A stretch of 33,882 nt of DNA from Polyangiales bacterium (GTDB taxonomy: Bacteria; Myxococcota_A; Polyangia; Polyangiales; Houyiibacteriaceae): the NCBI GenBank assembly GCA_045106895.1, contig JBGCFM010000210.1, positions 1 to 33,882 on the forward strand. Direction: 5' to 3'. Positions 1,007 through 14,180 of this stretch are shown piece after piece. Made by a program: the position numbers and the translations under genes. The notes below the pieces were generated by a model, which was not told the DNA's origin, made no database searches, and saw nothing but the letters and a program-made list of their open reading frames with translations. Positions within the stretch are counted from its first letter, which is position 1. Each line of letters starts with the position of its first letter.

Positions 1007-1714
1007 GTGCATCGACCTCTCGGACGAAAGGCGTACACGTCGATCCCGCACCTGCCGGGTTCGCGAACTGCCGGAGACCGTCACATCTCACTTCGCCAAG
1101 CCGAACGTCTGACGTGTGAGGCGCCTCGCGGTTTCGAGGTCGTGGTGCAAGAGAAGCTCGACGGTTCGTGCGTAGCGGCGGCGCGAATCGGCGACGACAT
1201 CGTTGCACTGGGCCGAGCAGGCGACCTGGCGGCGGAGTCACGCAACGCGGGCCGGCGCTTGTGGGCTGCCTGGGTCCACGAGCATCAAGGGCGCTTTCGA
1301 GCGTTGCTTCGGCCGGGGGAGCGGCTTGTCGGAGAGTGGCTGGCCCTCGCGCATTCCACTCACTATTCCCTCGTCCATGAGCCTTTCGTCGCCTTCGATC
1401 TGATGAGCGAGGCTGAACGCCTGACGTCGCTGGCGCTTGGACGGCGACTCCGGCAGACTGGCTTTTGTCTGCCTCACGAAGTTCACCGAGGGGATGCACT
1501 GGCCGTTCCCGCGGCCCTCACGATGCTAGGCCATGGCGGCCACGGCGCGATGGAGCCGCCCGAAGGGCTCGTCTATCGCTTGGAGTCCGAGGGAGCCGTG
1601 GCCCTCATCGCAAAACACGTTCGCCCGGGGAAGGTCGATGGCAGCCTTCTCGAGGAAAACACGGGGAAACCGCCGGTCTGGAACTGGCATCCCGACTTCA
1701 ATGAGCCTCGATGA
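1007..1714 (+). CDS. ATP-dependent RNA ligase family protein (Rnl2-like nucleotidyltransferase domain)
   Basis: KAYTSIPHLPGS N-terminus, motif I EKLDGS, GEW, FVAFDL, EGLVYR, AKHV. Confidence 0.8.
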   Translation: MHRPLGRKAYTSIPHLPGSRTAGDRHISLRQAERLTCEAPRGFEVVVQEKLDGSCVAAARIGDDIVALGRAGDLAAESRNAGRRLWAAWVHEHQGRFRALLRPGERLVGEWLALAHSTHYSLVHEPFVAFDLMSEAERLTSLALGRRLRQTGFCLPHEVHRGDALAVPAALTMLGHGGHGAMEPPEGLVYRLESEGAVALIAKHVRPGKVDGSLLEENTGKPPVWNWHPDFNEPR

Positions 1715-2847
1715 TCCACTTCATCACATCCAACCGAAAGCGCGCTGAACTCGAACTCCTCTTAGGAGGGCTGCCGCTGTCGTTTACGCGCCTGACCCTT
1801 CCACGGCCGTCGGCGGCGTTGCTCGCAGAGCGGGCACAAGAGCGCGCCGCCTCCGCATTCGCCGAGTTAGGTCAAGGATGCATCGCAGAGGTGACGGAGC
1901 TTCGCACCGCGGCCGGGGGCTTCAGTGGCGCGGACTACAAGAAGGCTCTCGAGCGCGAAGGCGACGAGTTTCACGCACGCATCGCAGGCCCCGCCGTCGC
2001 CGCCGTTGCTGTGGCGTACGTCGACGGCGAACAAACCCTCGTCTTCGAGGGGGCTCTTCACGGCGAGCTCTTGGCCGAACCTCGCGGAAGCGGGGGCATC
2101 GGTTGGGACGGTACATTTCAACCCGAAGACACGACGCAGACCTTGGCGGAGATGCGGCACCACAAGAGCTTCACGAACATGCGCTTGCGGCCTTTTCTTG
2201 AGCTCGCGGACGCACTTCGCGGACGTTCCTTTGGCGGCGTCTTCGAAGCGCATATCACCGTGGCACTCGTAGGAGAGGAGGAGCTCGTTCGCTTCGATGC
2301 GCTCTGCTCGGACCTCGCCGTGAAGTCGATCCATATCGTCCTTCCAAGAGGAGAGATTCGTTTTCAGCCAATGACGAGTAGCTACCATCATGGAGAGCTC
2401 CTCGCCGTTCAGGGTGAAGTGTTTGAGCTGGCGAGGCGCATCGCTGGCGCTGGTTTTGAAGTTACGCGTGCGAAGATCGAAGCCACCGGGAGCAACCGGG
2501 AGATTCCTCAGAGCGACGCGGATGCGGAGAGCTTTCCTCACAACTACTTCGAGTTTCACGTCAAGACGCGCATCGCGCCCAGCGCGGACGCCGGCAAGTT
2601 GGCAGAAGCGGTGAGCCTTCACGGCGCGCACCTCTCGCGCAACGCACGAAAGGTCTTCGCCGACGGGACTCGTCAGCACTTCGTGACGCTGCGGGTGTAT
2701 GAAGCGGGACGTCGCCGTGCCGAAGAGCGCTTCGCGACGCTGCGCGACGCGATTCAACAGGCCGGTTTCGAATGGCGTGAGCCGATTCGTGAGTACACGG
2801 TCTACGATTCAAACGTTAGTGTGGACAAAGGATGGCTCCCGACCTGA
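1711..2847 (+). CDS. HAM1/ITPase-like domain fused to an uncharacterised C-terminal domain
   Basis: IHFITSN, VFEG...G, PRGSGGIGWDGTF.P..TTQTLAEM resemble HAM1; C-terminal FEAHITV and YFEFHVK motifs; ATGA overlap with the ligase gene. Confidence 0.65.
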   Translation: MIHFITSNRKRAELELLLGGLPLSFTRLTLPRPSAALLAERAQERAASAFAELGQGCIAEVTELRTAAGGFSGADYKKALEREGDEFHARIAGPAVAAVAVAYVDGEQTLVFEGALHGELLAEPRGSGGIGWDGTFQPEDTTQTLAEMRHHKSFTNMRLRPFLELADALRGRSFGGVFEAHITVALVGEEELVRFDALCSDLAVKSIHIVLPRGEIRFQPMTSSYHHGELLAVQGEVFELARRIAGAGFEVTRAKIEATGSNREIPQSDADAESFPHNYFEFHVKTRIAPSADAGKLAEAVSLHGAHLSRNARKVFADGTRQHFVTLRVYEAGRRRAEERFATLRDAIQQAGFEWREPIREYTVYDSNVSVDKGWLPT

Positions 2848-3620
2848 AAGAAGCCGCGATGCTCGCCATCGTTGATAGCGCCGCGAGGACGTCGTCGGAG
2901 GTGTTCATCCTTCGCGGTGGGCTCGTCATGCGAGACCTCATCGCGCCACTCCGTCGACCCGTCGATGACGTCGACTTCCTCGCGCTGTGCAGCGACGCCG
3001 AGGCCCGCGAGCGATTGAGTCTTCTCGCTCAACGCAGCGGAGACTTCGAACTCAGCCTTGGTCCCATCGAGCGTATTTGGGAAGAGACGGAGTTTCCCGG
3101 ACTGCGAACTCAATGCACGGCGAGGGGACTCGGCGGAGCGCTCGTCGTGCAGATCGACGTCGGCTTTGGTGACCCAAGAGCGGCGCCGGAGAGGCAGCTG
3201 AAACTCCCTGGAGCCCACGAGGCGATCGCGGCCGTCGCTCTTGAGACCATGCTCGCTTGGAAGATTCACGGCATCTTCGAGCGAGGCGACGGTGCGTGGC
3301 GCGCGAAGGACTTGATCGATGTGCACGACCTGGCGGAGCGCTGCGTGGATGAGGCCACAGCGGTGCGTTGTTTGGCGTTGGCGTTTGAGTCGCGGAGCGA
3401 CGACTTTTCGATCTGTGAGCGCTTCCTCTGCGGGGACTGGGGCACCAGTCGCGGCAGCCGGCGCAAGTGGCGTCAGTTTCGCCGCAGGCGGACGGAGTTC
3501 GACGCGACGCGTTGCTTCCCCGAGGACCTACAGGACTTTGTTGAGGCTCTGCGAGGACAGGTGGGAGCCCTCATCGCCGCCGCCTCACATTTGCCTCACA
3601 TAACGAGAGACCCACTGTAA
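2832..3620 (+). CDS. AbiEii/DUF1814-family nucleotidyltransferase
   Basis: ILRGG, RxxDDVDF, IDVGFGDP, ETMLAWK, RAKDLID motifs; overlaps upstream gene; alternative start 2859. Confidence 0.8.
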   Translation: MAPDLKEAAMLAIVDSAARTSSEVFILRGGLVMRDLIAPLRRPVDDVDFLALCSDAEARERLSLLAQRSGDFELSLGPIERIWEETEFPGLRTQCTARGLGGALVVQIDVGFGDPRAAPERQLKLPGAHEAIAAVALETMLAWKIHGIFERGDGAWRAKDLIDVHDLAERCVDEATAVRCLALAFESRSDDFSICERFLCGDWGTSRGSRRKWRQFRRRRTEFDATRCFPEDLQDFVEALRGQVGALIAAASHLPHITRDPL

Positions 3621-6697: not shown

Positions 6698-7639
6698 TCA
6701 ACTCTTGGAGGCCGCGATGCGTCGCTCAAGAAAGTCGACGACGCGCTCGAAGGGCTTCACGTCGAAGTGTTCCGCCACGCTCGGCCGAAGGTTGGAGTTC
6801 GCGTTGACGTCATAGAAGACGAGGCGTCCGTCAGGAGTCTCAAGGTACTCCACACCGCCAACGTCGATGTTGGCGGCCTTGAGGATCTTCTTCGCGGTCT
6901 CCACGGCTGCCGGCGGCACCTCTGGGTAAGGATAGAACTCCACCGGCGGCGTGTTGACGACGGGAACTTCGCAGACGCTCTCTCCGCCTTCGCCCGGGTT
7001 ACAGACCGGGGAGGGGCAGAGGTTGAACTTTCCGTGGGTGACGACGCGCATCGGGTAGAGGAGCTCGCCGTCGAGGACCTCGAGACGAATGATGCCGTGG
7101 CTCGCGTCGTGCGGCAGGTACTCCTGCAAGAGGAAGAGGTTGTCCGGCGCCCAAATGTCGGCGCTGACAAAAGCCTGGCGTAGCTCGTCGGCGTTTTCGA
7201 CGACCTGAATCCGCGCGCCGCTCCCGCCGAGGTCCGGCTTGATCAGCCGAGGCCACGTGTTGTTCTCTTCGATGGCGGCTTCGACGTCGTTGAAGACAAT
7301 GGACTGGGGATGGTCGATGCCGAGCTGTCGACAAAGGGCAACCTGCGCCGCTTTGGAAAGCTCCATCGAGAATGCTTCGGACCCGTTGATGACGTCGCAG
7401 CCGAGGCGCTCCAGGTGACGCATCATGGAGAGCGCCAAGGGCACCGCCCGTTCATTGCCACGGACGTATGCACTTGGGCTGGCTTGGTTGAAGACGACCT
7501 TCGCCAAGGGGGCAGCGTCACTTCCGAAAGCGCATCGCTTGATGTCCACCTTCACGTAGTCGATGCCCCGGGCATCGAGGGCGGAGAAAAGAGGCTCTTG
7601 CCAGAGTGGGTGCTCAAAGAGGATCGCCAAGTCGCGCAT
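6698..7639 (-). CDS. RimK-like ATP-grasp ligase
   Basis: IKPDLGGSGARI, LLQEYLP, GGVEYL...FYDVNANSN. Confidence 0.8.
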   Translation of the reverse strand: MRDLAILFEHPLWQEPLFSALDARGIDYVKVDIKRCAFGSDAAPLAKVVFNQASPSAYVRGNERAVPLALSMMRHLERLGCDVINGSEAFSMELSKAAQVALCRQLGIDHPQSIVFNDVEAAIEENNTWPRLIKPDLGGSGARIQVVENADELRQAFVSADIWAPDNLFLLQEYLPHDASHGIIRLEVLDGELLYPMRVVTHGKFNLCPSPVCNPGEGGESVCEVPVVNTPPVEFYPYPEVPPAAVETAKKILKAANIDVGGVEYLETPDGRLVFYDVNANSNLRPSVAEHFDVKPFERVVDFLERRIAASKS

Positions 7640-7712
7640 CGGACGTCTTTAGTGCCTCATGCGCGGAGTGTCACCCACCCATCCCAACGATCAATACTCG
7701 GGCCCGATGAGT

Positions 7713-8222
7713 TCACCGTTTCGGGCGAGCGCCCCGCGACAGCTCATCCACGCGACGCAGCATCTCCGGAAGCCGGTGCTCTCCGGCCATCGAGGCGATG
7801 CGGCGGGCCGCTGAGTTCGCGCTGCCGGTGCATGTCACATAGAGGGGTTTTGTGGACTTCCCCCGAAGCACCTCCGCCGCCGGCGCTCCGACGTATTCGT
7901 TCTTTGCGACGCCGATCACCTCGACGCGCCCATCCAGAGCTCGCTGAAGGTGTCGGCCGAGACCCGGCTTGCCGCCGCCGAGGTCCACGTAGCCGTCCAC
8001 GATGATCGTCTTCAGATGAAGGCTCTCGTACGCGCGCTTGATGAGGGGCAAGATGCACGGCAGTTCGCGACGAAAGAACTCGCCGGCGGCATAGTCCTCG
8101 ACGACGCCATTGCGCGTGTCCGCCCACTCATGCAGTCGCTCTTTGGCTCTCCACGTCTCGAAGAGCACCGCTCCGGTGATGGCCTCATCGCCAGAGTAGT
8201 GGACGTCCGTCGCTAAGATCAT
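7713..8222 (-). CDS. nfi: Endonuclease V (short form)
   Basis: ILATDVHY, YxxGEFFRRELP, IIVDGY, GLG, IGVAK, KPLYVT, HRLPEMLRRVD. Confidence 0.88.
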   Translation of the reverse strand: MILATDVHYSGDEAITGAVLFETWRAKERLHEWADTRNGVVEDYAAGEFFRRELPCILPLIKRAYESLHLKTIIVDGYVDLGGGKPGLGRHLQRALDGRVEVIGVAKNEYVGAPAAEVLRGKSTKPLYVTCTGSANSAARRIASMAGEHRLPEMLRRVDELSRGARPKR

Positions 8223-8300
8223 GAGTGCAGCTGCATAGTGTTGGCCAGCCGCGTACGGCGCAATGCGCCCGGCGAAGCGAACTTCGCCGGGCGCGCCTGA

Positions 8301-9866
8301 CTACAGAGTGGCGGCATCGATTACCTGTGTCCACGAGGCGCCATCCGCTTGCACGAACTGCCCGACCACGGTGAACACAGCATCGGAGAAACCTCCCACG
8401 TTGAGAACGTCTGGCCGCTGGAGGACTTGGCGGTGGACGTTCGGCGTCAGATCGATGCAGACCAGCTTGGCCTTTGGATTTCGTTTCTTTAGCGTCATCC
8501 ATTGAGACATCATCTCCGTGCCGCGGCTCCAGCCAGAGCGACCCTTCGCGTCCATCCAAGACTCGTTGTCCGAGATGTAGATGAGTACGTCGACCTTGGC
8601 CTTCTCTGCGTTGAGCAGCGCCAGCGGCGCCGAGCAATTCGTTCCTCCGCCGCCGATAGACGCCAGAGCTCCCGCGATGGACATGATGCTGTCCCGTGGG
8701 TTGATCGGCAGCGTCCGAACCTTGTTCTCGAAGGGCAGAACGCGCGCGAGCGGGTTCTTCCGAAGCAGCGCCGCCGAGATCAGACCCGCGACGTCGACGC
8801 AGCGAACCGCCGTAGTGGACCCGCTACGAAACCCCGTCACGGGGCTCTGCATAGAACCAGAAACATCCGGGCAGATCACGACGTGTCCCGAAAGCTCCGG
8901 GATGTTGTGCGTGGCGTGCTCCATGGCGTCCTGAAGCGCCTCGGAGAGACGCGTGGAGAGCCCCTGTGTGCTGTTCCAAGCGACGAGAAGCTGATACGGA
9001 AAGACTTTTGCGCTCCGGACCTCGTCCTCGTCGCCGATGCGTTTCGCCACGAGTTTGATCATCGCCTCGTCATCGAAGACGCCGTGGCGCTGAAACGTGT
9101 TCAGGTTCATTCGTGTCTCGTGCCAACGCGCACGATGCGCGATGTCCGTCCACTCCGTCTTGCCCAGAGGCAGACCTGTGAGCATTCGTGAGGGCACCTT
9201 CGGCACACCTTGAGACTTATCGCCACGCTTCCACGCCTCGTAGTTCAAGACCGCAGCCGGCAGCTTTGAGAGGTCGTGGGGCTTGCCCAGGAGGTAGCCG
9301 AACATAGCCCGCTGCTCGTCGCTTAGAGGCTTCGGGTGAACCATGCGGATCACGTCCGCGAGGGAGGGGTCGTTGCCCACAGAGTCGCGGAAGAGCTGCA
9401 TCGGCGAGCGCTGCTGGAGCCATCGCTGCACGGCCTTCTTTGGCGCGCTGCCCAGAGATTTTCGTCCGAGCTGACCCGAACGAAGGACCTGCACGAAGTT
9501 GCGCAGCATTCGCCCGTTGTCGATGACGCGGGGAAACGCGAGCTTCATGGCCACAAGACCCTCGGGGCCGCGCGTCGCCAAATGCGCCAGAAGCACAGCC
9601 GGCATGTCTTTCATGAATGCGCGCTCGCGTGCGTAGATCGCCGCCTTCGCGACGTAGCGAGCGTCGCACTGAGCGGCGTGCTCCAGGACCACGTCGAGCT
9701 GCTCTTGGCCTGACACGTAGAACGTGCTGCCAAAACAGCCCGTGGCCGCGAGCTGCGCGAGGGCCGTAGGTGAGTCGAGGATGTACGCCGGCGCGCCCGC
9801 GTGATTCATGCTCGTCGTTTTCGGCGCAGCCTTCGCTGCACTTCGGAATAGGGACTTGATGGCCAT
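8301..9866 (-). CDS. rsr: Ro60/TROVE-vWA RNA-binding protein
   Basis: NHAGAPAY, LAQLAATGC..TFY, MKDMPA, MLRNF, PSLADVIRMVHPKP, PYQLL, DVSGSM, GGGTNCS, ISDNESW, VGGFSD; ATG at 9866 after AAAGGA. Confidence 0.93.
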   Translation of the reverse strand: MAIKSLFRSAAKAAPKTTSMNHAGAPAYILDSPTALAQLAATGCFGSTFYVSGQEQLDVVLEHAAQCDARYVAKAAIYARERAFMKDMPAVLLAHLATRGPEGLVAMKLAFPRVIDNGRMLRNFVQVLRSGQLGRKSLGSAPKKAVQRWLQQRSPMQLFRDSVGNDPSLADVIRMVHPKPLSDEQRAMFGYLLGKPHDLSKLPAAVLNYEAWKRGDKSQGVPKVPSRMLTGLPLGKTEWTDIAHRARWHETRMNLNTFQRHGVFDDEAMIKLVAKRIGDEDEVRSAKVFPYQLLVAWNSTQGLSTRLSEALQDAMEHATHNIPELSGHVVICPDVSGSMQSPVTGFRSGSTTAVRCVDVAGLISAALLRKNPLARVLPFENKVRTLPINPRDSIMSIAGALASIGGGGTNCSAPLALLNAEKAKVDVLIYISDNESWMDAKGRSGWSRGTEMMSQWMTLKKRNPKAKLVCIDLTPNVHRQVLQRPDVLNVGGFSDAVFTVVGQFVQADGASWTQVIDAATL

Positions 9867-9886
9867 GGTGTTTCCTTTCGCATTCG

Positions 9887-9922
9887 GCTGCGAAGCTCGA
9901 TGGCAATCGAGTAGGACTTCAT
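9887..9922 (-). repeat. 3' arm of long-range inverted repeat pairing with 12082-12117
   Basis: 9901-9919 is the reverse complement of 12085-12103 at 18/19 positions; flanking GCTGCG/CGCAGC and GTTC/GAGC also pair. Confidence 0.8.
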
Positions 9923-9929
9923 AGAAAGC

Positions 9930-10049
9930 GGGCGACGAGGTGATGCTGAGACAAGGCTGATGTCCTGCCATTGGACGACCGCGTCCGAAGACGCGACTCG
10001 GAGTCGAACCGAGATAGTCAGAGTGATGTAGTCCCAGCGGCATTCGCCC
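9930..10049 (-). ncRNA. YrlA-type Y RNA, copy 1
   Basis: 5' GGGCGAAUG pairs with 3' UCGCCC; CUGGGAC/GUCUCAG stem; T-arm CUCGG-UUCGACU-CCGAG, closed acceptor hairpin CGCGUC-UUCG-GACGCG, D-arm GUCC-AAUGGCA-GGAC; just upstream of rsr. Confidence 0.88.
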
Positions 10050-10135
10050 TGGCGGAAGATGGAGGAGTCGAACCCCTGCGCGTTTACGCCCCCGGTTTTC
10101 GAAACCGGTGTAGCTCCACAGCCACGTCATCTTCC
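10050..10135 (-). tRNA. tRNA-Ser(CGA), 8/4 fold
   Basis: GGAAGAUG/CAUCUUCC acceptor, G73, CCA; CCGGU-UUCGAAA-ACCGG; long variable arm; T-arm GGGG-UUCGACU-CCUC. Confidence 0.85.
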
Positions 10136-10140
10136 ATTGC

Positions 10141-10594
10141 GCTTCTCCGCCCAGCACGCCGCCCTCTGCGTTGCGCTGCGGCTCGGCATCCACAGATGCC
10201 GTCGCCTTGCGCGCCTTGATGGCGGCGCGCTGGACGAAGAATCGCCGAGGATGTTCTTGGGTCCTCGGACCCGTTGGCCCAGCACGCCGCCCTCTGCGTT
10301 GCGCTGCGGCTCGGCATCTACCGATGCCGTCTTCGGTTGTTGTGCTTCCCCGCCCAGCACGCCGCTGACTGCGTTGCGCTCGGTTCGGCATCCACAGATG
10401 CCCTCACCTCGCGCGCCTTGTCAGCGACGCGCTGGACGAGGAATCACGCGGGGTGTTTTCCTGGCTTCGGGGAAGCTCGGTGGCGCCTTGATGGCGGCGC
10501 GCTGGACGAAGAATCGCCGAGGATGTTCTTGGGTCCTCGGACCCGTTGGCCCAGCACGCCGCCCTCTGCGTTGCGCTGCGGCTCGGCATCTACC
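10141..10594. repeat. Cluster of ~100-bp palindromic (REP-like) elements with an exact 112-bp direct repeat
   Basis: Full copies 10141-10243 and 10344-10445 with central GGCATC-CACA-GATGCC, plus half copies; 10211-10322 = 10483-10594. Confidence 0.85.
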
Positions 10595-10607
10595 TTCGAT
10601 AGTAGTC

Positions 10608-10724
10608 GGGCGACGAGGTTGTACTGAGACGTTTCCCGACGCCCTCCCATTGGGCCACCGCGTGTTGCGACTCGGATTCGAACCGAGATATTCGGGGTCG
10701 TTGTAGTCCCAGCGGCATTCGCCC
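10608..10724 (-). ncRNA. YrlA-type Y RNA, copy 2
   Basis: Same 5' GGGCGAAUGCCGCUGGGACUACA and 3' GUCUCAG...CCUCGUCGCCC as copy 1; T-arm CUCGG-UUCGAAU-CCGAG; D-arm GCCC-AAUGGGA-GGGC; compensatory changes versus copy 1. Confidence 0.88.
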
Positions 10725-10811
10725 TGGAGGAAGCTGGAGGAGTCGAACCCCGACGCGCTTGCGCCACCCGCTTTCCAGGCGAGCTCGGCGACCATCGCCG
10801 ATGCAGCTTCC
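10725..10811 (-). tRNA. tRNA-Ser(GGA), 8/4 fold, extended D-stem, U73
   Basis: GGAAGCUG/CAGCUUCC-U-CCA; D-arm UCGGCG-AUGGU-CGCCGA; CUCGC-CUGGAAA-GCGGG; long variable arm. Confidence 0.82.
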
Positions 10812-10820
10812 CAAGTTTGT

Positions 10821-10920
10821 GCTTCCCCGCCCAGCACGCCGTCTCAGCGTCGCGCCGCGGTTCGGCATCCATAGTGCCGTCGCCTTGCGCTCCTGGGTCT
10901 CGACGCGGTGGACGAAGAAT
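10821..10920. repeat. Diverged third full copy of the palindromic element
   Basis: GCTTCCCCGCCCAGCACGCCG...GGCATCCATAGTGCC...TGGACGAAGAAT. Confidence 0.8.
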
Positions 10921-10988
10921 TATCGTGCGGTGTGCACCCGCGAAGGCGGAGGCATGATTGGCGCGCCTCTTTCCGTTCGGCTCCATCG

Positions 10989-11064
10989 TGGTGTGAATGG
11001 AGGGAGTCGAACCCCCACTGGGCCGAGTTTAAAACGGCTGCCTCTTCCATTGGGCTACACTCAC
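10989..11064 (-). tRNA. tRNA-Leu(TAA), short variable loop
   Basis: 76 nt; GUGAGUG/CAUUCAC-A-CCA; loop UU-UAA-AC. Confidence 0.85.
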
Positions 11065-11153
11065 TGGTGCTGTACGAACTACGCCGCGGGTGTGCACCTG
11101 CGAAGGCGTAGGCGGCGCCTGCAGCTGACGGGTAAGGACGTCAGCATGGAGCT

Positions 11154-11229
11154 TGGTGACGATGGAGAGATTCGAACTCTCACTGAGCTGTTTCTAAGAC
11201 AGCTGCCTCTCCCGTTGGGCTACATCGCC
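11154..11229 (-). tRNA. tRNA-Leu(TAG), short variable loop
   Basis: 76 nt; GGCGAUG/CAUCGUC-A-CCA; GCUGU-CUUAGAA-ACAGC. Confidence 0.88.
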
Positions 11230-11251
11230 GATGTTTGTTTTAGAGAAAAAG

Positions 11252-11327
11252 TGGTGCGAGCGAAGGGAGTCGAACCCCCACTGGGCCGAGTTTGAAACGG
11301 CTGCCTCTTCCGTTGGGCTACACTCGC
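11252..11327 (-). tRNA. tRNA-Leu(CAA), short variable loop
   Basis: 76 nt; GCGAGUG/CGCUCGC-A-CCA; loop UU-CAA-AC; near-duplicate of Leu(TAA). Confidence 0.85.
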
Positions 11328-11351
11328 AGCGTCTTCTCGTCTGAGAAGACG

Positions 11352-11423
11352 TGGTCCCGCCGGGTGGAATCGAACCACCCTCGCCGCCCATATGAAGAGC
11401 GCGCCGGTCCAACCGTCGGCGGG
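11352..11423 (-). tRNA. tRNA-Met/Ile2(CAT) with shortened D-arm
   Basis: CCCGCCG/CGGCGGG-A-CCA; CGCUC-UUCAUAU-GGGCG; T-arm GGUGG-UUCGAUU-CCACC; 72 nt. Confidence 0.72.
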
Positions 11424-11426
11424 ATT

Positions 11427-11654
11427 TGGTAGCGGGGCCAGGAGTCGAACCTGAGTGCTGAGGGATATGAACCCAGTGTCGCGATGGGGTACTTTGACTC
11501 CGAACTCGAGGCCCTCGTCAGCGATCTCGGGTTCGCATCACCTCGAATGTGCAAGCACGTCCTTCGGCGAAGCGACTCCCGACCTCACGGGCGATCATCC
11601 ACGACTAAGGAGCCAAACCACCCCATCGCGACACAGACGCCGGTCTTCCCCGCA
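11427..11654 (-). tRNA. Initiator-like tRNA-fMet(CAT) interrupted by a 157-bp insertion (possible pseudogene)
   Basis: UGCGGGG/CCCCGCU-A-CCA with 1:72 mismatch; GGG-UUCAUAU-CCC; T-arm UCAGG-UUCGACU-CCUGG; insertion between D-arm and anticodon arm. Confidence 0.72.
11477..11633. mobile_element. MITE-like element
   Basis: TG...CA ends; 14-bp perfect TIR TGTCGCGATGGGGT extending to 25 bp with 3 mismatches; flanked by CAG at 11474-11476 and 11634-11636; no transposase. Confidence 0.7.
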
Positions 11655-11694
11655 AAGGAAGCCATCGATGCGCCCGTGGGCACACCAATGGACT

Positions 11695-11770
11695 TGGTGG
11701 AGTCGAGGGGAACCGAACCCCTGACCTCGTGGGTGCAAATCACGCGCTCTCCCAACTGAGCTACGACCCC
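11695..11770 (-). tRNA. tRNA-Ala(TGC)
   Basis: GGGGUCG/CGACUCC-A-CCA with G3:U70; loop UU-UGC-AC; T-loop UUCGGUU. Confidence 0.88.
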
Positions 11771-11783
11771 AAGATTTTCGAAA

Positions 11784-11859
11784 CGGTGATCCGAGCGTGA
11801 ATCGAACACGCGACTTCCTGAATGTTAAACAGGCACTCTCCCTACTGAGCTATCGGATC
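11784..11859 (-). tRNA. tRNA-Val(AAC)
   Basis: GAUCCGA/UCGGAUC-A-CCG; CCUGU-UUAACAU-UCAGG; T-arm GCGUG-UUCGAUU-CACGC. Confidence 0.8.
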
Positions 11860-11873
11860 AAAATGCGCCGGTG

Positions 11874-11945
11874 CGGCAGGTCGTCGAGGAGTTGAACCCC
11901 GCGCAGCTGGTGTTGGAAGCCTGCTTGTGCCCCGGCACACGACCT
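11874..11945 (-). tRNA. tRNA-Trp(CCA), shortened D-arm, degenerate anticodon stem
   Basis: AGGUCGU/ACGACCU-G-CCG; loop UU-CCA-AC; T-arm CGGGG-UUCAACU-CCUCG. Confidence 0.65.
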
Positions 11946-11983
11946 AGAGTTCCCTTCCGAGGAGTTTCCGAATGGAAGGAAAA

Positions 11984-12046
11984 GTGGCGACGAGAAGTTA
12001 GAGAGACATGGCTATCATGCGATGTAGTCCCCCTGGCATTCGCCAC
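11984..12046 (-). ncRNA. Minimal Y-RNA-like element (Ro-binding module only)
   Basis: GUGGCGAAUGCCAGGGGGACUACAUC...GUCUCUCU...UCGUCGCCAC: same termini and GGGACUACA core as the two Yrl copies, no tRNA-like domain. Confidence 0.72.
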
Positions 12047-12051
12047 GAAGT

Positions 12052-12079
12052 TGGTGCGTGAGCTTGGGAAAACCCACGC
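12052..12079 (-). other. ACCA-terminated microhelix
   Basis: GCGUGGGUUU-UCCC-AAGCUCACGC-A-CCA. Confidence 0.45.
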
Positions 12080-12081
12080 GA

Positions 12082-12117
12082 ATAAAGTCCTACTCGATTG
12101 TCAAAGAACGACGCAGC
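12082..12117 (-). promoter_or_regulatory. boxA-like antitermination site within the 5' arm of the long-range duplex
   Basis: CGUUCUUUGACAAU (12110-12097) resembles rrn boxA; complementary to 9887-9922. Confidence 0.65.
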
Positions 12118-12210
12118 ACGACATCCCTCCATGAGCTGGAGGCAAAGAAGTGCATTTGATATGTGCATTTGAAGTGCGCATATCTTCGTCTCTTGTTCGT
12201 TAGAACAAGT

Positions 12211-12286
12211 GGGTGGATCCGGAGGGCATCGAACCCTCAACCGCCCGGGTAAGAACCGGGTGCTCTGCCTGTTGAGCTACGGATCC
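12211..12286 (-). tRNA. tRNA-Lys(CTT)
   Basis: GGAUCCG/CGGAUCC-A-CCC; CCCGG-UUCUUAC-CCGGG. Confidence 0.88.
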
Positions 12287-12287
12287 C

Positions 12288-12362
12288 TGGTGGGGCTGAA
12301 GGGTGTCGAACCCCCAACCGTCCGGGTAAAAACCGGCTGCTCTGCCGTTGAGCTACAACCCC
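12288..12362 (-). tRNA. tRNA-Lys(TTT)
   Basis: GGGGUUG/CAGCCCC-A-CCA; GCCGG-UUUUUAC-CCGGA. Confidence 0.88.
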
Positions 12363-12467
12363 AGGTGGTGTTGCAGCGTCCGTTTGTATCGTTCCATGTG
12401 TTGTCTTTCCCGTGCGACCGTTGAGACTTCAGAGGGGACCCTCAGGAGGATGAGTGCGTCCAAGAAC

Positions 12468-12500
12468 AAAAAAAACCGCCCGAGGCTGGTGCCTGGGCGG
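12468..12500 (-). terminator. Intrinsic terminator (attenuator) upstream of the tRNA array
   Basis: CCGCCC-AGGC-ACCA-GCCU-C-GGGCGG followed by U8. Confidence 0.85.
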
Positions 12501-12535
12501 GTTCGATACGTGTGAGAACGTATTTCGAAGCCGCC
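12496..12535 (-). promoter_or_regulatory. Antiterminator hairpin overlapping the terminator 5' arm
   Basis: GGCGG-C-UUCG-AA-AUACG-UUCUCACA-CGUAU-CGAA-C-CCGCC; the final CCGCC is shared with the terminator. Confidence 0.7.
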
Positions 12536-12708
12536 TAGGTGAGGTTTGCCTCTCCCACGAGCTTGGCCATGAGCTTGGCTACGGGCTTGCTGAGAATTGC
12601 CGATACCGACAAGGATGAAGAACCTAATGAAAGGACGAGCGCATCGAGAGAGCCAAGGTGTTTGCCTTGCCATCGCTTTGCTTCGGTCTGTTCGTTCAGG
12701 TGTTGCAT
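12535..12708 (-). CDS. Putative 57-aa attenuator leader peptide
   Basis: MQHLNEQTEAKRWQGKHLGSLDALVLSLGSSSLSVSAILSKPVAKLMAKLVGEANLT*; stop codon at the base of the antiterminator; no clear SD. Confidence 0.5.
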   Translation of the reverse strand: MQHLNEQTEAKRWQGKHLGSLDALVLSLGSSSLSVSAILSKPVAKLMAKLVGEANLT

Positions 12709-12746
12709 GACGTGTTGGTGTGAGGGGATGCCCCCTCGAGAACTTC

Positions 12747-12774
12747 ATAGTGCACGCATATTTGCGAGGGTCAA
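12747..12774 (-). promoter_or_regulatory. Candidate sigma70-type promoter of the array
   Basis: TTGACC-16 nt-CACTAT; spacer contains the palindrome CGCA-AATA-TGCG. Confidence 0.45.
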
Positions 12775-12862
12775 GAGATGTGATCAATTAAAGTAGATTT
12801 TAAATTCTCGTGTCTCTCGGAAGGCGGTCGCTGCTGGATACACGTGGACTACAATTGGCGCG

Positions 12863-13462
12863 ATGAGCAAAGAGACCTGGGATGAGCGCGCGGACGACTG
12901 GGACGAGCAAGAGGAGACACATGTCTACGCCGCTCAGGCGTTTGAAACATTGGTTCCGTATGTTGAAGAACATCTCGGCGAGTGGAGGAGCTTGCGCGTC
13001 CTCGACTTTGGAGCGGGCACCGGACTGCTGACGGCGAAGCTCGCGCCCAAGTGCCGACAGCTCGTTGCCCTCGACCTCTCGCCGAAGATGATCGCGCAGC
13101 TCGACAAGAAGGCCACGGCGGCAGGGTGGGACAACGTCTCGTCCGTCGCAGGGACGCTGAGCGCACTCGACGACACCGGCGCGTTCGATCTGATCGTTGC
13201 GTCCTCGGTGTGTAGTTTCCTCTCGGACTTCCCCAGGGAGCTACGCAAGCTCTCTTCAATGCTCCGGCCGGGGGGCTTGTTTGTGCAATGGGATTGGCAA
13301 CAGAACGCAGCCACCGAGTGGTCTGACGGCTTCTCGGAAGAGGACCTCCGCCGGGCTTACGCTCCAGCGCAGCTCGAAGTCGTTCGCGCGAGTCTCGGCT
13401 TCACGTTTGCCTTTGATGGCAAGGGACTCGAGGTGTTGATGGGAGTTGGCAAGAGAGCGTAG
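12863..13462 (+). CDS. Class I SAM-dependent methyltransferase
   Basis: VLDFGAGTGL, ALDLSPKMI, FDLIVAS, LRPGG. Confidence 0.9.
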   Translation: MSKETWDERADDWDEQEETHVYAAQAFETLVPYVEEHLGEWRSLRVLDFGAGTGLLTAKLAPKCRQLVALDLSPKMIAQLDKKATAAGWDNVSSVAGTLSALDDTGAFDLIVASSVCSFLSDFPRELRKLSSMLRPGGLFVQWDWQQNAATEWSDGFSEEDLRRAYAPAQLEVVRASLGFTFAFDGKGLEVLMGVGKRA

Positions 13463-13498
13463 CGGTGCTGCGCGGCGGCACTGAGCGCCGGCTGTTCT

Positions 13499-14062
13499 TT
13501 AGGAGGCGAAACTCTCGGGGTCGGCGTCGCCAAGGGGAGGCGGAAGACCGGGGAGCGCGGTTTGGTTCTCAATGTCGAGGAGGATGTCCTCGAAGGACTC
13601 TTCGTTTTCTTCGCACCACGACTCGACGCATACAGGGTGCAGGTAGCCCGCGCCCTTTCGTGTGAAGTTCCCCGTGTCGATCTCACGCTCCACGGCGATA
13701 CGAACGCTGCCTTTTTCGATGGCGTCATCACAGAGAATGCACTTGGCGCGGCCTGTCGGGGCGAGGTCCGCGTTGGGGAGTGCACCGCTTCCCTTTGAGC
13801 CTTTTCCGGCGCTGCTCTTGATGAGCGCGTGAAGCTCGTCGCGATTCGGGACCTCGTCCGAATACGCTTCGAGGGCGGGACCCACGAGGTCTCCTTTGGC
13901 GCCGGCGGCACACTTCAGGTGATGCCAGACTTTCTGTACGCCAGCCGAGCCAAACTGGCTGGGCACCTCTTCGCCGAAACGCAGGTCGCCCTTGGGGATC
14001 TTGTCTTTGCACGTTCGGCACGCGGCGCGTCCCGAAGGAGAAACATGAATGCTGTGTGCCAT
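13499..14062 (-). CDS. Tandem PARP-type zinc finger protein
   Basis: SPSGRAACRTCKDKIPKGDLRFG...WHHLKC and APTGRAKCILCDDAIEKGSVRI...YLHPVC; AAGGAG SD. Confidence 0.82.
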   Translation of the reverse strand: MAHSIHVSPSGRAACRTCKDKIPKGDLRFGEEVPSQFGSAGVQKVWHHLKCAAGAKGDLVGPALEAYSDEVPNRDELHALIKSSAGKGSKGSGALPNADLAPTGRAKCILCDDAIEKGSVRIAVEREIDTGNFTRKGAGYLHPVCVESWCEENEESFEDILLDIENQTALPGLPPPLGDADPESFAS

Positions 14063-14180
14063 GGTGGTCCGTTGCTCCTTGTTGGTCGCGGGAATCTCGC
14101 ACGACGAGGAGAGGGGCGGCAAGGGCGAGGAAGCGCGAATCTATCGAAGGCTTCACCTGGAGGCGGCGCTATAGTGCGCC

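Follow-up and report, generated by a model that had tools for sequence, protein, structure and literature searches.

A Polyangiales tRNA array with built-in Y RNA and Ro60 genes, probably gated by a leader-frame attenuator

We analysed a 33,882-nucleotide (nt) stretch of DNA from a Polyangiales bacterium (assembly GCA_045106895.1, contig JBGCFM010000210.1), hereafter the window, which is the whole of the 33.9-kb contig C125 of the source genome (G000, a 7.7-Mb draft in 288 contigs). On its minus strand the window carries a dense array of tRNA genes, Y RNA genes and rsr, the gene for a Ro60 ortholog, preceded by a small leader frame and an intrinsic terminator. From the anatomy of this array and its comparison with related loci, we conclude that it is probably one piece of a mobile, phage-related long tRNA array (L-array) of the Myxococcota with built-in Y RNAs and Rsr, gated by a transcription attenuator that would depend on ribosomes translating the leader. 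The original prediction, made from the letters of the window, had listed here a promoter, a leader frame with attenuator, 12 atypical tRNAs, three Y-RNA-like genes, rsr, nfi and a boxA-containing enclosing duplex, and had read them as a stress-induced module supplying backup tRNAs and Ro ribonucleoproteins. Its inventory is confirmed, save for the promoter, which is a candidate, and its interpretation appears partly supported: comparison with relatives speaks for a backup-tRNA and Ro ribonucleoprotein unit with an attenuator and rRNA-style signals, from which nfi has to be removed.

From 12774 to 8301 on the minus strand, the elements run as follows: a −35-like hexamer, a small hairpin, a CA-rich leader, a 57-codon frame and an intrinsic terminator; then tRNA-Lys(UUU), tRNA-Lys(CUU), a boxA-like 17-mer within one arm of a long-range duplex, a short Y-like hairpin, and the Trp, Val(AAC) and Ala genes; and finally a 232-nt tRNA-like gene, Met, three 76-nt Leu genes, a Ser gene with a YrlA gene twice over, the second duplex arm and rsr. 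All features of the array described below lie on this strand. Related loci carry L-numbers; G001 and G002 are genomes of the same genus, and L083 is a phage contig from IMG/VR.

A leader frame and terminator precede the array

The leader begins with the hexamer TTGACC (12774–12769), read from the sequence as −35-like and 66 nt upstream of the leader ATG, which is a promoter candidate only; TTGAC(A/C) stands 52–71 nt before the ATG in five leaders. A 5′-untranslated hairpin, GAGGGG..CCCCTC (12722–12737), precedes a CA-rich stretch and the ATG of a 57-codon open reading frame (ORF; 12708–12535) that ends in TAG and whose peptide matches no Pfam or NCBIfam family. Right after the stop codon, region 2 (12534–12524) can pair with region 3 (12506–12496) around an inner hairpin, giving an antiterminator (12496–12534; folding free energy, ΔG, −19.3). 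It is followed by the intrinsic terminator (12468–12500), comprising the stem CCGCCCAGGC/GCCTCGGGCGG (12500–12476; hairpin ΔG −19.0) and a T run. The 5′ strand of the terminator is also region 3 of the antiterminator, and the two helices are mutually exclusive. Together, a small frame and an antiterminator and terminator that share a strand are the features that define an attenuator.

The second tRNA array of the same genome, on contig C270, starts with a TTGACA hexamer, a hairpin, ATG-CAA, a 75-codon frame encoding an unrelated peptide, and a near-identical terminator. The hairpin of this paralogous leader, GAGGGC..GCCCTC, sits at the equivalent site and differs by compensatory changes. The array starts of L023, L028 and L018 follow the same plan, and within G000 the terminator pattern with its T run is present only in the two array leaders.

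A loose terminator pattern was scanned against 401 genomes of the same order and matched 45 times in 40 of them; a reversed-pattern control gave roughly half as many matches (by column count), so the loose pattern is noisy. Seventeen motif instances in 15 genomes were chosen by eye, 15 with the core CCGCCC(C)AGG..GCCTCGGGCGG and two variants. Co-oriented tRNA genes lie 16–476 nt downstream of the motif in 17/17 instances, with 1–26 tRNAs per locus. The gap from terminator to first tRNA is at most 30 nt in six distinct arrays, which leaves no space there for a separate promoter; it is 109 nt in the window and 256–476 nt in five arrays. The leader ORF and attenuator layout first noticed in the window thus have counterparts ahead of tRNA arrays on one phage contig and in 15 genomes of the order. 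Outside the order, the specific terminator core has no instance in the match list of a 251-genome, phylum-level scan (samples only). In the viral collection, the loose pattern found 114 loci in 15 of 64 parts, none of them with a co-oriented tRNA within 600 nt; L083 escaped this pattern through a one-base difference in region 4.

The 17 instances, together with L018 and L083, provide 19 leaders for comparison. Each has an ATG frame of 15–75 codons that ends at or beside region 2, with TAG as the stop codon in 16 of the 19, and the encoded peptides are unrelated. Substitutions fall evenly on all codon positions, and indel lengths are multiples of three, a pattern that fits a frame whose translation is required while its product is irrelevant. 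Competing frames do not exceed 21 amino acids (aa), except for one of 47 aa in L068 and two long frames in L022. A GAGG-type, Shine-Dalgarno-like motif is found 8–16 nt before the leader stop in 17/19 leaders (counted by eye, in L083 over 3380–3432), and a Glu-(Asp/Gly)-Pro-x C-terminus, also recognised by eye, recurs in several leaders with synonymous codon changes. We infer that the motif and the C-terminus may keep the terminating ribosome on region 2. By eye, no Shine-Dalgarno sequence precedes the leader ATGs in the upstream stretches examined, and a search of the leader against Rfam, T-box included, returned no match at E ≤ 1.

In 12 of the 17 leaders folded, a region 2:region 3 helix with a GGCGG:CCGCC core is predicted at −19 to −31 kcal/mol; the terminators have −15 to −20 kcal/mol. 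When 15 nt from the stop codon onward are masked in the folding, the terminator forms in 17/17. In a 13-sequence alignment, 81% of the helix cells are paired, compared with 74.2% in shuffles, and covariation in the helix is 0.187 compared with 0.095; 0/500 shuffles reach either value, and slid registers of the same alignment are 34–52% paired.

Two minimal units, at L015 10960–11040 and L022 9512–9590, comprise one or two tRNAs, a YrlA, rsr and a 15-codon leader. This leader stops at TAG in one of the two genomes and at TGA in the second; the frame is kept, and the simple helix is not predicted.

Leader codons may correspond to the tRNAs downstream

All 20 amino acids are present in 7 of the 19 leader peptides, against 0.23 expected, and two more contain 19. 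In simulations of this count, the probability of at least four such leaders was 6e-5 and 0/400,000 runs reached five. Two of the seven, L063 and L074, are paralogs whose inclusion hinges on an N-terminal extension of uncertain translation; without them, the remaining five are still far above expectation. Where arrays are partial, the leaders are enriched over background for codons read by their own array in 8/8 cases (individual p 0.003–0.25). Examples are a Leu/Asp-rich leader ahead of an Asp-Leu-Leu array, and a 22-codon leader with two Trp codons and one Tyr codon ahead of a Tyr-Trp array. For the two leaders and two complementary arrays of G000, the correspondence gives a Fisher p of 3e-4 and an odds ratio of 5.6. 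As evidence for what the leader measures, codon content is suggestive, not conclusive.

A boxA-like element lies in a predicted duplex around most of the array

The window contains two arms of a long-range duplex, each 36 nt long and with 81% complementarity. The 5′ arm (12082–12117, inverted repeat I1) holds the boxA-like 17-mer at 12109–12093, and the 3′ arm (9887–9922) lies 21–56 nt upstream of the rsr ATG. The extended duplex has a ΔG of −59.5, whereas shuffled sequences average −32.8 and go no lower than −47.0. Ten other arrays and the phage contig L083 each contain the 17-mer once, on the array strand and with at most two mismatches, and the duplex is known in six arrays counting the window and L083; the boxA-containing enclosing duplex of the original prediction is therefore both present in the window and shared with other arrays.

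We also compared the first 12 bases of the 17-mer with the leader and spacer elements of rRNA (rrn) operons in five relatives, the rrn leader of G000 itself not being assembled. Matches within two mismatches were found in three of the five (5 hits in 10 regions); shuffled regions gave a hit in 22/2000 trials. The only other 17-mer site in G000, on C147, is in an ordinary intergenic stretch that has no Rfam match and is not rRNA.

Of 11 arrays with the 17-mer that were tested, five (the window, L023, L028, L072 and L074) have, thousands of nt further on, a segment complementary to the 17-mer and its flank, with partner matches of 16–32 nt at 90–100% identity (E 1e-4 to 6e-10). Four arrays (the window, L023, L028 and L083) have rsr within the available sequence; in them the extended duplex stops 16–21 nt upstream of the rsr ATG and encloses 2.1–3.9 kb, with ΔG values of −59.5 to −87.6 against shuffled minima of −47 to −64.

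The array genes are supernumerary tRNAs

The original prediction counted 12 atypical tRNAs, and we find 11 tRNA genes and one tRNA-like gene in 2.3 kb. ARAGORN called 10 tRNA genes between 12362 and 10050 at default settings and a relaxed run added Trp; Rfam placed seven above the tRNA gathering score and matched both Ser genes and the Met gene only as weak tRNA-Sec-like. Both programs support tRNA-Lys(UUU) (12362–12288), tRNA-Lys(CUU) (12286–12212), tRNA-Val(AAC) (11859–11785), tRNA-Ala(UGC) (11770–11695) and, with the weaker Rfam match for Met, the group of Met(CAU), Leu(CAA), Leu(UAG) and Leu(UAA) (10989–11423). The two Ser genes, tRNA-Ser(GGA) (10725–10811) and tRNA-Ser(CGA) (10050–10135), are ARAGORN calls with weak Rfam support, and tRNA-Trp(CCA) (11945–11875), found by relaxed ARAGORN only, is 96% identical to its G001 counterpart. 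The array tRNAs are 59–86% identical to the best housekeeping tRNA for the same amino acid. The genome has 74 tRNA genes with a near-complete set outside the arrays, so the array genes are supernumerary.

What makes these genes atypical, beside their divergence and the Val(AAC) anticodon, is the size of the Leu genes. The three (10989–11064, 11154–11229 and 11252–11327) are 76 nt long and have no long variable arm, whereas the housekeeping Leu tRNAs are 85–87 nt. Short Leu genes (75–77 nt) also occur at L023 8240–8472, and the L028 and L083 arrays keep Leu genes of 84–89 nt. Class I tRNA-Leu is otherwise known from animal mitochondria. A34 tRNAs are encoded in several arrays: Val-AAC here, and Gly-ACC, Leu-AAG and Arg-ACG in relatives.

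Between Ala and Met lies the 232-nt tRNA-like gene (11655–11424), in which acceptor stem, T arm and ACCA end are present and a rod of ~75 bp stands in for the anticodon arm (ΔG −119 kcal/mol, z −6.4). The rod is single-copy in the genome. A 75-nt version in G001 is bounded by the same 20 nt at the 5′ end and 30 nt at the 3′ end; the gene in the window carries a 157-nt insertion. It may be a tRNA gene that took up an insertion, or else a novel tRNA-like RNA. A permuted transfer-messenger RNA (tmRNA) reading of 11573–11722 (23.8 bits, E 0.078) was dropped for the first of these; ARAGORN called no tmRNA.

A dispersed repeat of ~100 nt, probably a small mobile or REP-like element, interrupts the array with one copy at 10817–10933 and several copies at 10137–10600, between tRNA and Y RNA genes. 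The repeat unit has 31 BLAST hits on 17 contigs of the genome.

Y RNA genes and rsr belong to the array

Of the three Y-RNA-like genes proposed originally, two are full-length YrlA matches and the third is a short Y-like hairpin. YrlA 1 (10604–10725, 48 bits) abuts the 3′ end of tRNA-Ser(GGA), and YrlA 2 (9926–10050, 50.3 bits) abuts tRNA-Ser(CGA). Both align over model positions 1–114 of RF02553 with all helices formed and score below its gathering score of 69, which is reached in relatives (70.1 bits in L023; 69.2–75.4 bits in Lysobacter). They have the features that define YrlA, namely a stem for Ro binding that carries GNCGAA(N)G, a tRNA-like T/D-arm module inside the RNA and a position within 4 kb of rsr, their ends lying 60 nt and 738 nt from the rsr start. 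The short RNA (11984–12046; ΔG −21.3, z −2.5) is YrlB-like, with a Ro-type stem carrying the GGCGAAUG motif and no tRNA-like domain; both halves of its stem are shared with the two YrlAs (repeat families D10 and D12). The YrlA genes count as genuine members of the array: their distance to flanking tRNAs is 0–3 nt in the window, L018 and L023. We infer that their ends may be set by tRNA-processing enzymes.

The rsr gene (8301–9866) encodes 521 aa, has no internal stops and contains TROVE (E 2e-7) and Ro60-type von Willebrand factor A (vWA_Ro60, E 5e-17) domains. Residues 6–506 align with residues 14–531 of Deinococcus radiodurans Rsr (2nvo; E 1.2e-20), a full-length match that upholds the earlier assignment. 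The score of 75 bits is short of the NCBIfam equivalog cut-off of 900, and Rsr is thus a divergent member of its family. A perfect 13-bp hairpin without a T run (8265–8294, inverted repeat I10) lies right after the rsr stop, and is a possible 3′ end or stabiliser.

The window array appears to be half of a larger mobile unit

G000 has a second array of 20 tRNAs, spread over C270:1–1130 and C74:15452–19569 (loci L002 and L001), whose contig ends overlap at 95% identity. The two arrays of the genome are complementary: C125 encodes Lys, Trp, Val, Ala, Met, Leu and Ser tRNAs, and C270/C74 those for Tyr, Gln, Asn, Asp, Phe, Ile, His, Gly, Cys, Arg, Pro, Glu and Thr. Alongside the tRNAs, the second array has genes for an HNH endonuclease (L001 9318–9848) and an Rnl2-family RNA ligase (L001 7829–8863). 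An Rnl2-family ligase gene also stands directly upstream of rsr in G002 (L005), and an HNH gene is present in L017, L023 and L018 and absent from the window's own piece.

In relatives, a single syntenic array of 21–26 tRNAs has rsr close to its 3′ end, in the order Tyr, Lys, Lys, Gln, Asn ... Leu, Leu, Leu, Pro, Ser, Ser, Gly, Glu, Glu, rsr, Thr, Gln. Judged by this gene order, the window array is apparently one half of a larger mobile unit. Close Rsr orthologs (51–75% identity) were found in 6 of 40 relatives, the best of them in a different family, and rsr stands beside tRNA genes in all six (1, 4, 7, 25, 4 and 2 genes, with several loci cut by contig ends). Among five further Myxococcota loci, four have tRNAs next to rsr (2, 26, 1 and 21) and one has none. 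Four rsr loci of Hyphomicrobiaceae and Lysobacter (52–56% identity) have no tRNAs alongside. Within the genus, G001 keeps a shrunken array of four tRNAs, and rsr was not found in this 83% complete genome. The distribution is patchy, with signs of horizontal spread, as is usual for tRNA arrays.

The link to phages comes from L083, in which an array of 26 tRNAs, with an rsr 71% identical to that of the window, an attenuator leader (frame 3286–3432) and the 17-mer, is placed between a large terminase gene and genes for portal and Mu-F-like head proteins. In Myxococcus phage Mx1, a Ro-like gene (46% identity over 99% of the query) stands among the tRNAs, with HNH and peptidyl-tRNA hydrolase genes; the phage has neither the terminator motif nor the 17-mer. 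Ro-like genes were found in 218 phage records. The window itself contains no phage structural genes.

Proposed control of the array and alternatives

In the mechanism that we propose, transcription would begin upstream of the small leader frame. A ribosome reaching the TAG would cover region 2, leaving regions 3 and 4 to form the terminator, and the array would be off. Slow or stalled translation of the leader, through any missing, cleaved or uncharged tRNA or through ribosome inhibitors, would let region 2 pair with region 3; no terminator would form and transcription would read through into the array. The boxA-like element and the long duplex (36–60 bp) may then act like the stalk of an rRNA leader and spacer, the duplex shielding the long untranslated transcript from premature termination and offering a double-stranded processing site at which the rsr mRNA would be cut away from the tRNAs and Y RNAs. 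Release of the Y RNAs themselves would fall to tRNA-processing enzymes working on the abutting tRNAs, and the benefit would lie in replacement tRNAs and in clearance of damaged RNA guided by Ro and Y RNAs.

This attenuator logic resembles that of the mycobacterial whiB7 upstream ORF (uORF), which is a precedent for a ribosome-dependent reading. As far as the parts of the literature covered here describe it, efficient translation of the whiB7 uORF leads to termination and translation stress to read-through; the uORF is long and variable in sequence, and induction also follows knock-down of tRNAs or synthetases.

Several points weigh against the proposed reading. A search of sequencing runs returned no RNA run that contains the sequence. 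The motif instances were chosen by eye, and their tRNA neighbourhood was looked at for these 17 and not for the other 28 of the 45 matches. Of the promoter claimed in the original prediction, the −35-like TTGACC stands as a candidate, whereas a consensus scan of 7000–13500 found no sigma-70 type promoter. The simple helix is not predicted in 5 of 17 leaders (L064, L066, L015, L022 and, with the stop used, L072); three of these five end in TGA and may have a different mode of action. The covariation test uses 13 related sequences in an unrefined MAFFT alignment, and RNAalifold, applied to that alignment, recovered no more than a weak terminator-like consensus. Codon matching is modest per leader, several leaders are interrelated and the wobble rules applied were simplified. 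A partner arm for the 17-mer was not found in 6 of 11 arrays; five of them have cut-off sequence or no rsr, and the sixth, L070, has none in the 6.1 kb searched. The 17-mer sits within the duplex, and its conservation could reflect the stem alone, which makes boxA and stem functions inseparable. Finally, the array shows signs of decay, with inserted repeats, the 157-nt insertion in one tRNA gene and a Trp gene found only at relaxed settings.

A more specific reading, which we put forward tentatively, takes the leader frames as codon-matched gauges of the tRNA pool that would switch the array on upon a shortage of the tRNAs for which it holds replacements, as might follow cleavage by anticodon nucleases from defence systems or rival bacteria. 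Leaders of full arrays would sample all 20 amino acids and those of partial arrays would favour the codons of their own tRNAs. Once spare tRNAs are made, the leader would be translated again and the array would go off, a self-limiting feedback. Phages would use such a gauge for counter-defence, and hosts would have domesticated it along with Ro/Y RNA clearance and repair by RNA ligase.

The signs of decay invite the opposite view, that the array is a silenced relic, a decaying phage tRNA region kept off by its terminator, with a leader frame and complementary segments that have no regulatory role. Repeats of a kind with 31 hits on 17 contigs have inserted into it, one tRNA gene carries the 157-nt insertion, the tRNAs share only 59–86% identity with their housekeeping counterparts, the ancestral array has come apart into two loci, and in G001 it is reduced to four tRNAs and rsr was not found; the covered parts of PMC8421152 also describe some L-arrays as poorly transcribed. 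Yet leader plan, 17-mer and duplex have persisted in arrays with no more than 51–75% identity between Rsr proteins, and on a phage contig as well, the rsr frame is intact, and the leader frame is maintained while its peptide drifts freely. We consider a relic unlikely.

There is a slim chance that the switch exists but answers to a protein, a small RNA or, in the manner of a T-box, an uncharged tRNA, the frame being incidental to GC-rich sequence. Such a switch would accommodate unrelated peptides without codon-position bias, ATGs that lack a Shine-Dalgarno sequence in the stretches examined, and the 5/17 leaders without a simple helix. It would not account for an ATG frame that ends at region 2 in 19/19 leaders with its stop placed at the start of that region, the GAGG-type motif in 17/19, the recurrent Glu-(Asp/Gly)-Pro-x end with its synonymous changes or the seven peptides with all 20 amino acids, and the leader matches no Rfam family, T-box included, at E ≤ 1.

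It is very improbable that leader and terminator form a small gene of their own and that the tRNAs and rsr have separate promoters: the terminator-tRNA gap is 109 nt in the window and 256–476 nt in five arrays, and the duplex 3′ arm and 56-nt spacer before rsr could hide a promoter, but the gap is at most 30 nt in six distinct arrays, the motif occurs only before tRNA arrays among the instances examined, and no promoter-like site was found in 7000–13500.

Neighbouring genes

Downstream of rsr on the minus strand, beyond a stable hairpin without a T run, lies the ORF that the original prediction called nfi and included in the unit. It encodes 169 aa (7713–8222) and narrowly passes the Pfam Endonuclease_5 cut-off (27.3 bits against 23.4), with a match that spans positions 20–144 of the 198 in the profile; to solved endonuclease V (EndoV) structures, whose chains are 245–253 aa, it shows weak similarity in two segments (E 0.006). 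A RimK-like ATP-grasp ORF (6698–7639, minus strand) is the conserved partner of this EndoV-like ORF and is a neighbour, not a core part, of the array. The pair is kept within the genus (L068 4645–6149); in G001, where rsr was not found, it stands behind a LysR gene and a glutamate-synthase-like gene. Near the other rsr-type loci searched, the only nfi-like homolog is in L025, on the opposite strand, and queries with the ATP-grasp protein, the leader peptide and a methyltransferase found nothing in related loci. We therefore rejected the nfi-like and ATP-grasp genes as conserved operon members, and on this comparison the membership of the nfi-like gene in the unit is doubtful.

At 1711–3620, the window encodes a Ham1-like (ITPase) domain protein of 378 aa, followed by an overlapping ORF for an AbiEii-family nucleotidyltransferase toxin. 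Relatives of this toxin family modify tRNA 3′ ends, and the ORF, 4 kb from the array, is a possible tRNA-targeting toxin. The EndoV-like and Ham1-like genes are two inosine-related genes near arrays that encode A34 tRNAs. The region is flanked by genes for a zf-PARP domain protein (13499–14122) and a BRCT/twin-BRCT protein (330–1499); both domains are unusual and eukaryote-like, of a kind common in myxobacteria.

Discussion

Long tRNA arrays are found in many phyla and in phages, and their purpose is debated, with backup translation and counter-defence as the main proposals. To our knowledge, their control is known for one cyanobacterium only. An L-array is defined as at least 20 tRNA genes at a density of at least two per kb (Tran et al. 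2015). The window array is dense and has fewer than 20 genes, the sister array adds 20, and the syntenic arrays of relatives have 21–26. Like the trn operon of Anabaena PCC 7120 and the array units of Mycobacterium, it consists of co-oriented, supernumerary tRNAs that duplicate the housekeeping set, and like them it is patchily distributed, spread by mobile elements and phages, and associated with an embedded HNH gene, here in the sister array and in relatives. In the covered parts of PMC8421152, L-arrays are described with HNH and rtcB links and promoter-level control, and the rows for cultured Myxococcota examined in its Dataset 1B list arrays of at most eight genes.

The Anabaena array is also induced by translation stress, as proposed here, and linked to an RNA ligase gene (PMC8421152; PMC12803027). 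The differences lie in control and content. The Anabaena array is controlled at the promoter through direct repeats and the repressor TrcR (PMC8421152; PMC10272220), as described in the portions of these sources covered, whereas the array analysed here has a probable leader-frame attenuator. Ro60 lies within the present array and is not mentioned in the covered parts of PMC8421152; likewise, the boxA-like element and enclosing duplex are absent from the L-array descriptions in the covered parts of PMC8421152 and PMC12803027.

With the Salmonella rsr-yrlBA-rtcBA system, the array shares a Ro60 ortholog, tRNA-like YrlAs within a few hundred bases and a short second Y RNA. Unlike that system, the window has no rtcB, as the original prediction states, and no rtcA; the two RtcB genes of the genome are on contigs C113 and C149. 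Other differences are that the Y RNAs here are array members abutting tRNA genes and that the YrlAs score below the Rfam gathering score. Rsr/Y RNA ribonucleoproteins have been linked to tRNA damage (covered parts of PMC4201824 and PMC7790460). The 2014 survey in PMC4201824, to the extent covered, discarded candidates overlapping tandem tRNA genes and reported YrlAs near Ro in Sorangium and Plesiocystis.

Like whiB7, the trp, leu and his leaders and E. coli toiL, in so far as the sources covered describe them, the leader places a small frame, an antiterminator and an intrinsic terminator before the regulated genes. It differs from these uORF attenuators in its output, which is tRNAs, Y RNAs and Ro60 rather than a transcription factor or biosynthetic enzyme, and the leaders here tend to hold all 20 amino acids where the whiB7 uORF, according to the part of the source covered, is enriched for alanine.

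In rRNA operons, binding of Nus factors and cleavage by RNase III have established roles. As in those operons, a boxA-like sequence here lies in or next to an arm of a long-range duplex that encloses kilobases of untranslated RNA genes; unlike in them, the duplex surrounds tRNA and Y RNA genes and has its 3′ arm in front of a protein gene, and Nus binding and RNase III cleavage are putative. A Ro-like protein gene is also shared with Mx1 and with Mycobacterium and Streptomyces phages, and in Mx1 it stands among tRNA genes; the covered portion of the Mx1 genome announcement mentions 22 tRNA genes and not the Ro-like gene.

We found no account in the literature, with supplements covered in part, that joins tRNA arrays with Ro60 or with leader-peptide attenuation. 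As far as these searches went, three features are apparently new for tRNA arrays: a conserved cis element that would tie transcription to ribosome progress, rRNA-operon-like signals inside the array, and Ro60 and Y RNAs as members. The analysis gives this tRNA array family its first sequence-level, directly testable candidate control mechanism and places Ro60 and Y RNAs inside the family. If the mechanism is true, bacterial tRNA arrays become testable as a translation-stress response, in which cells and phages would gauge tRNA supply by a leader frame and respond with replacement tRNAs and RNA quality control, and the biology of bacterial Ro60 and Y RNAs would gain a defined inducing condition.

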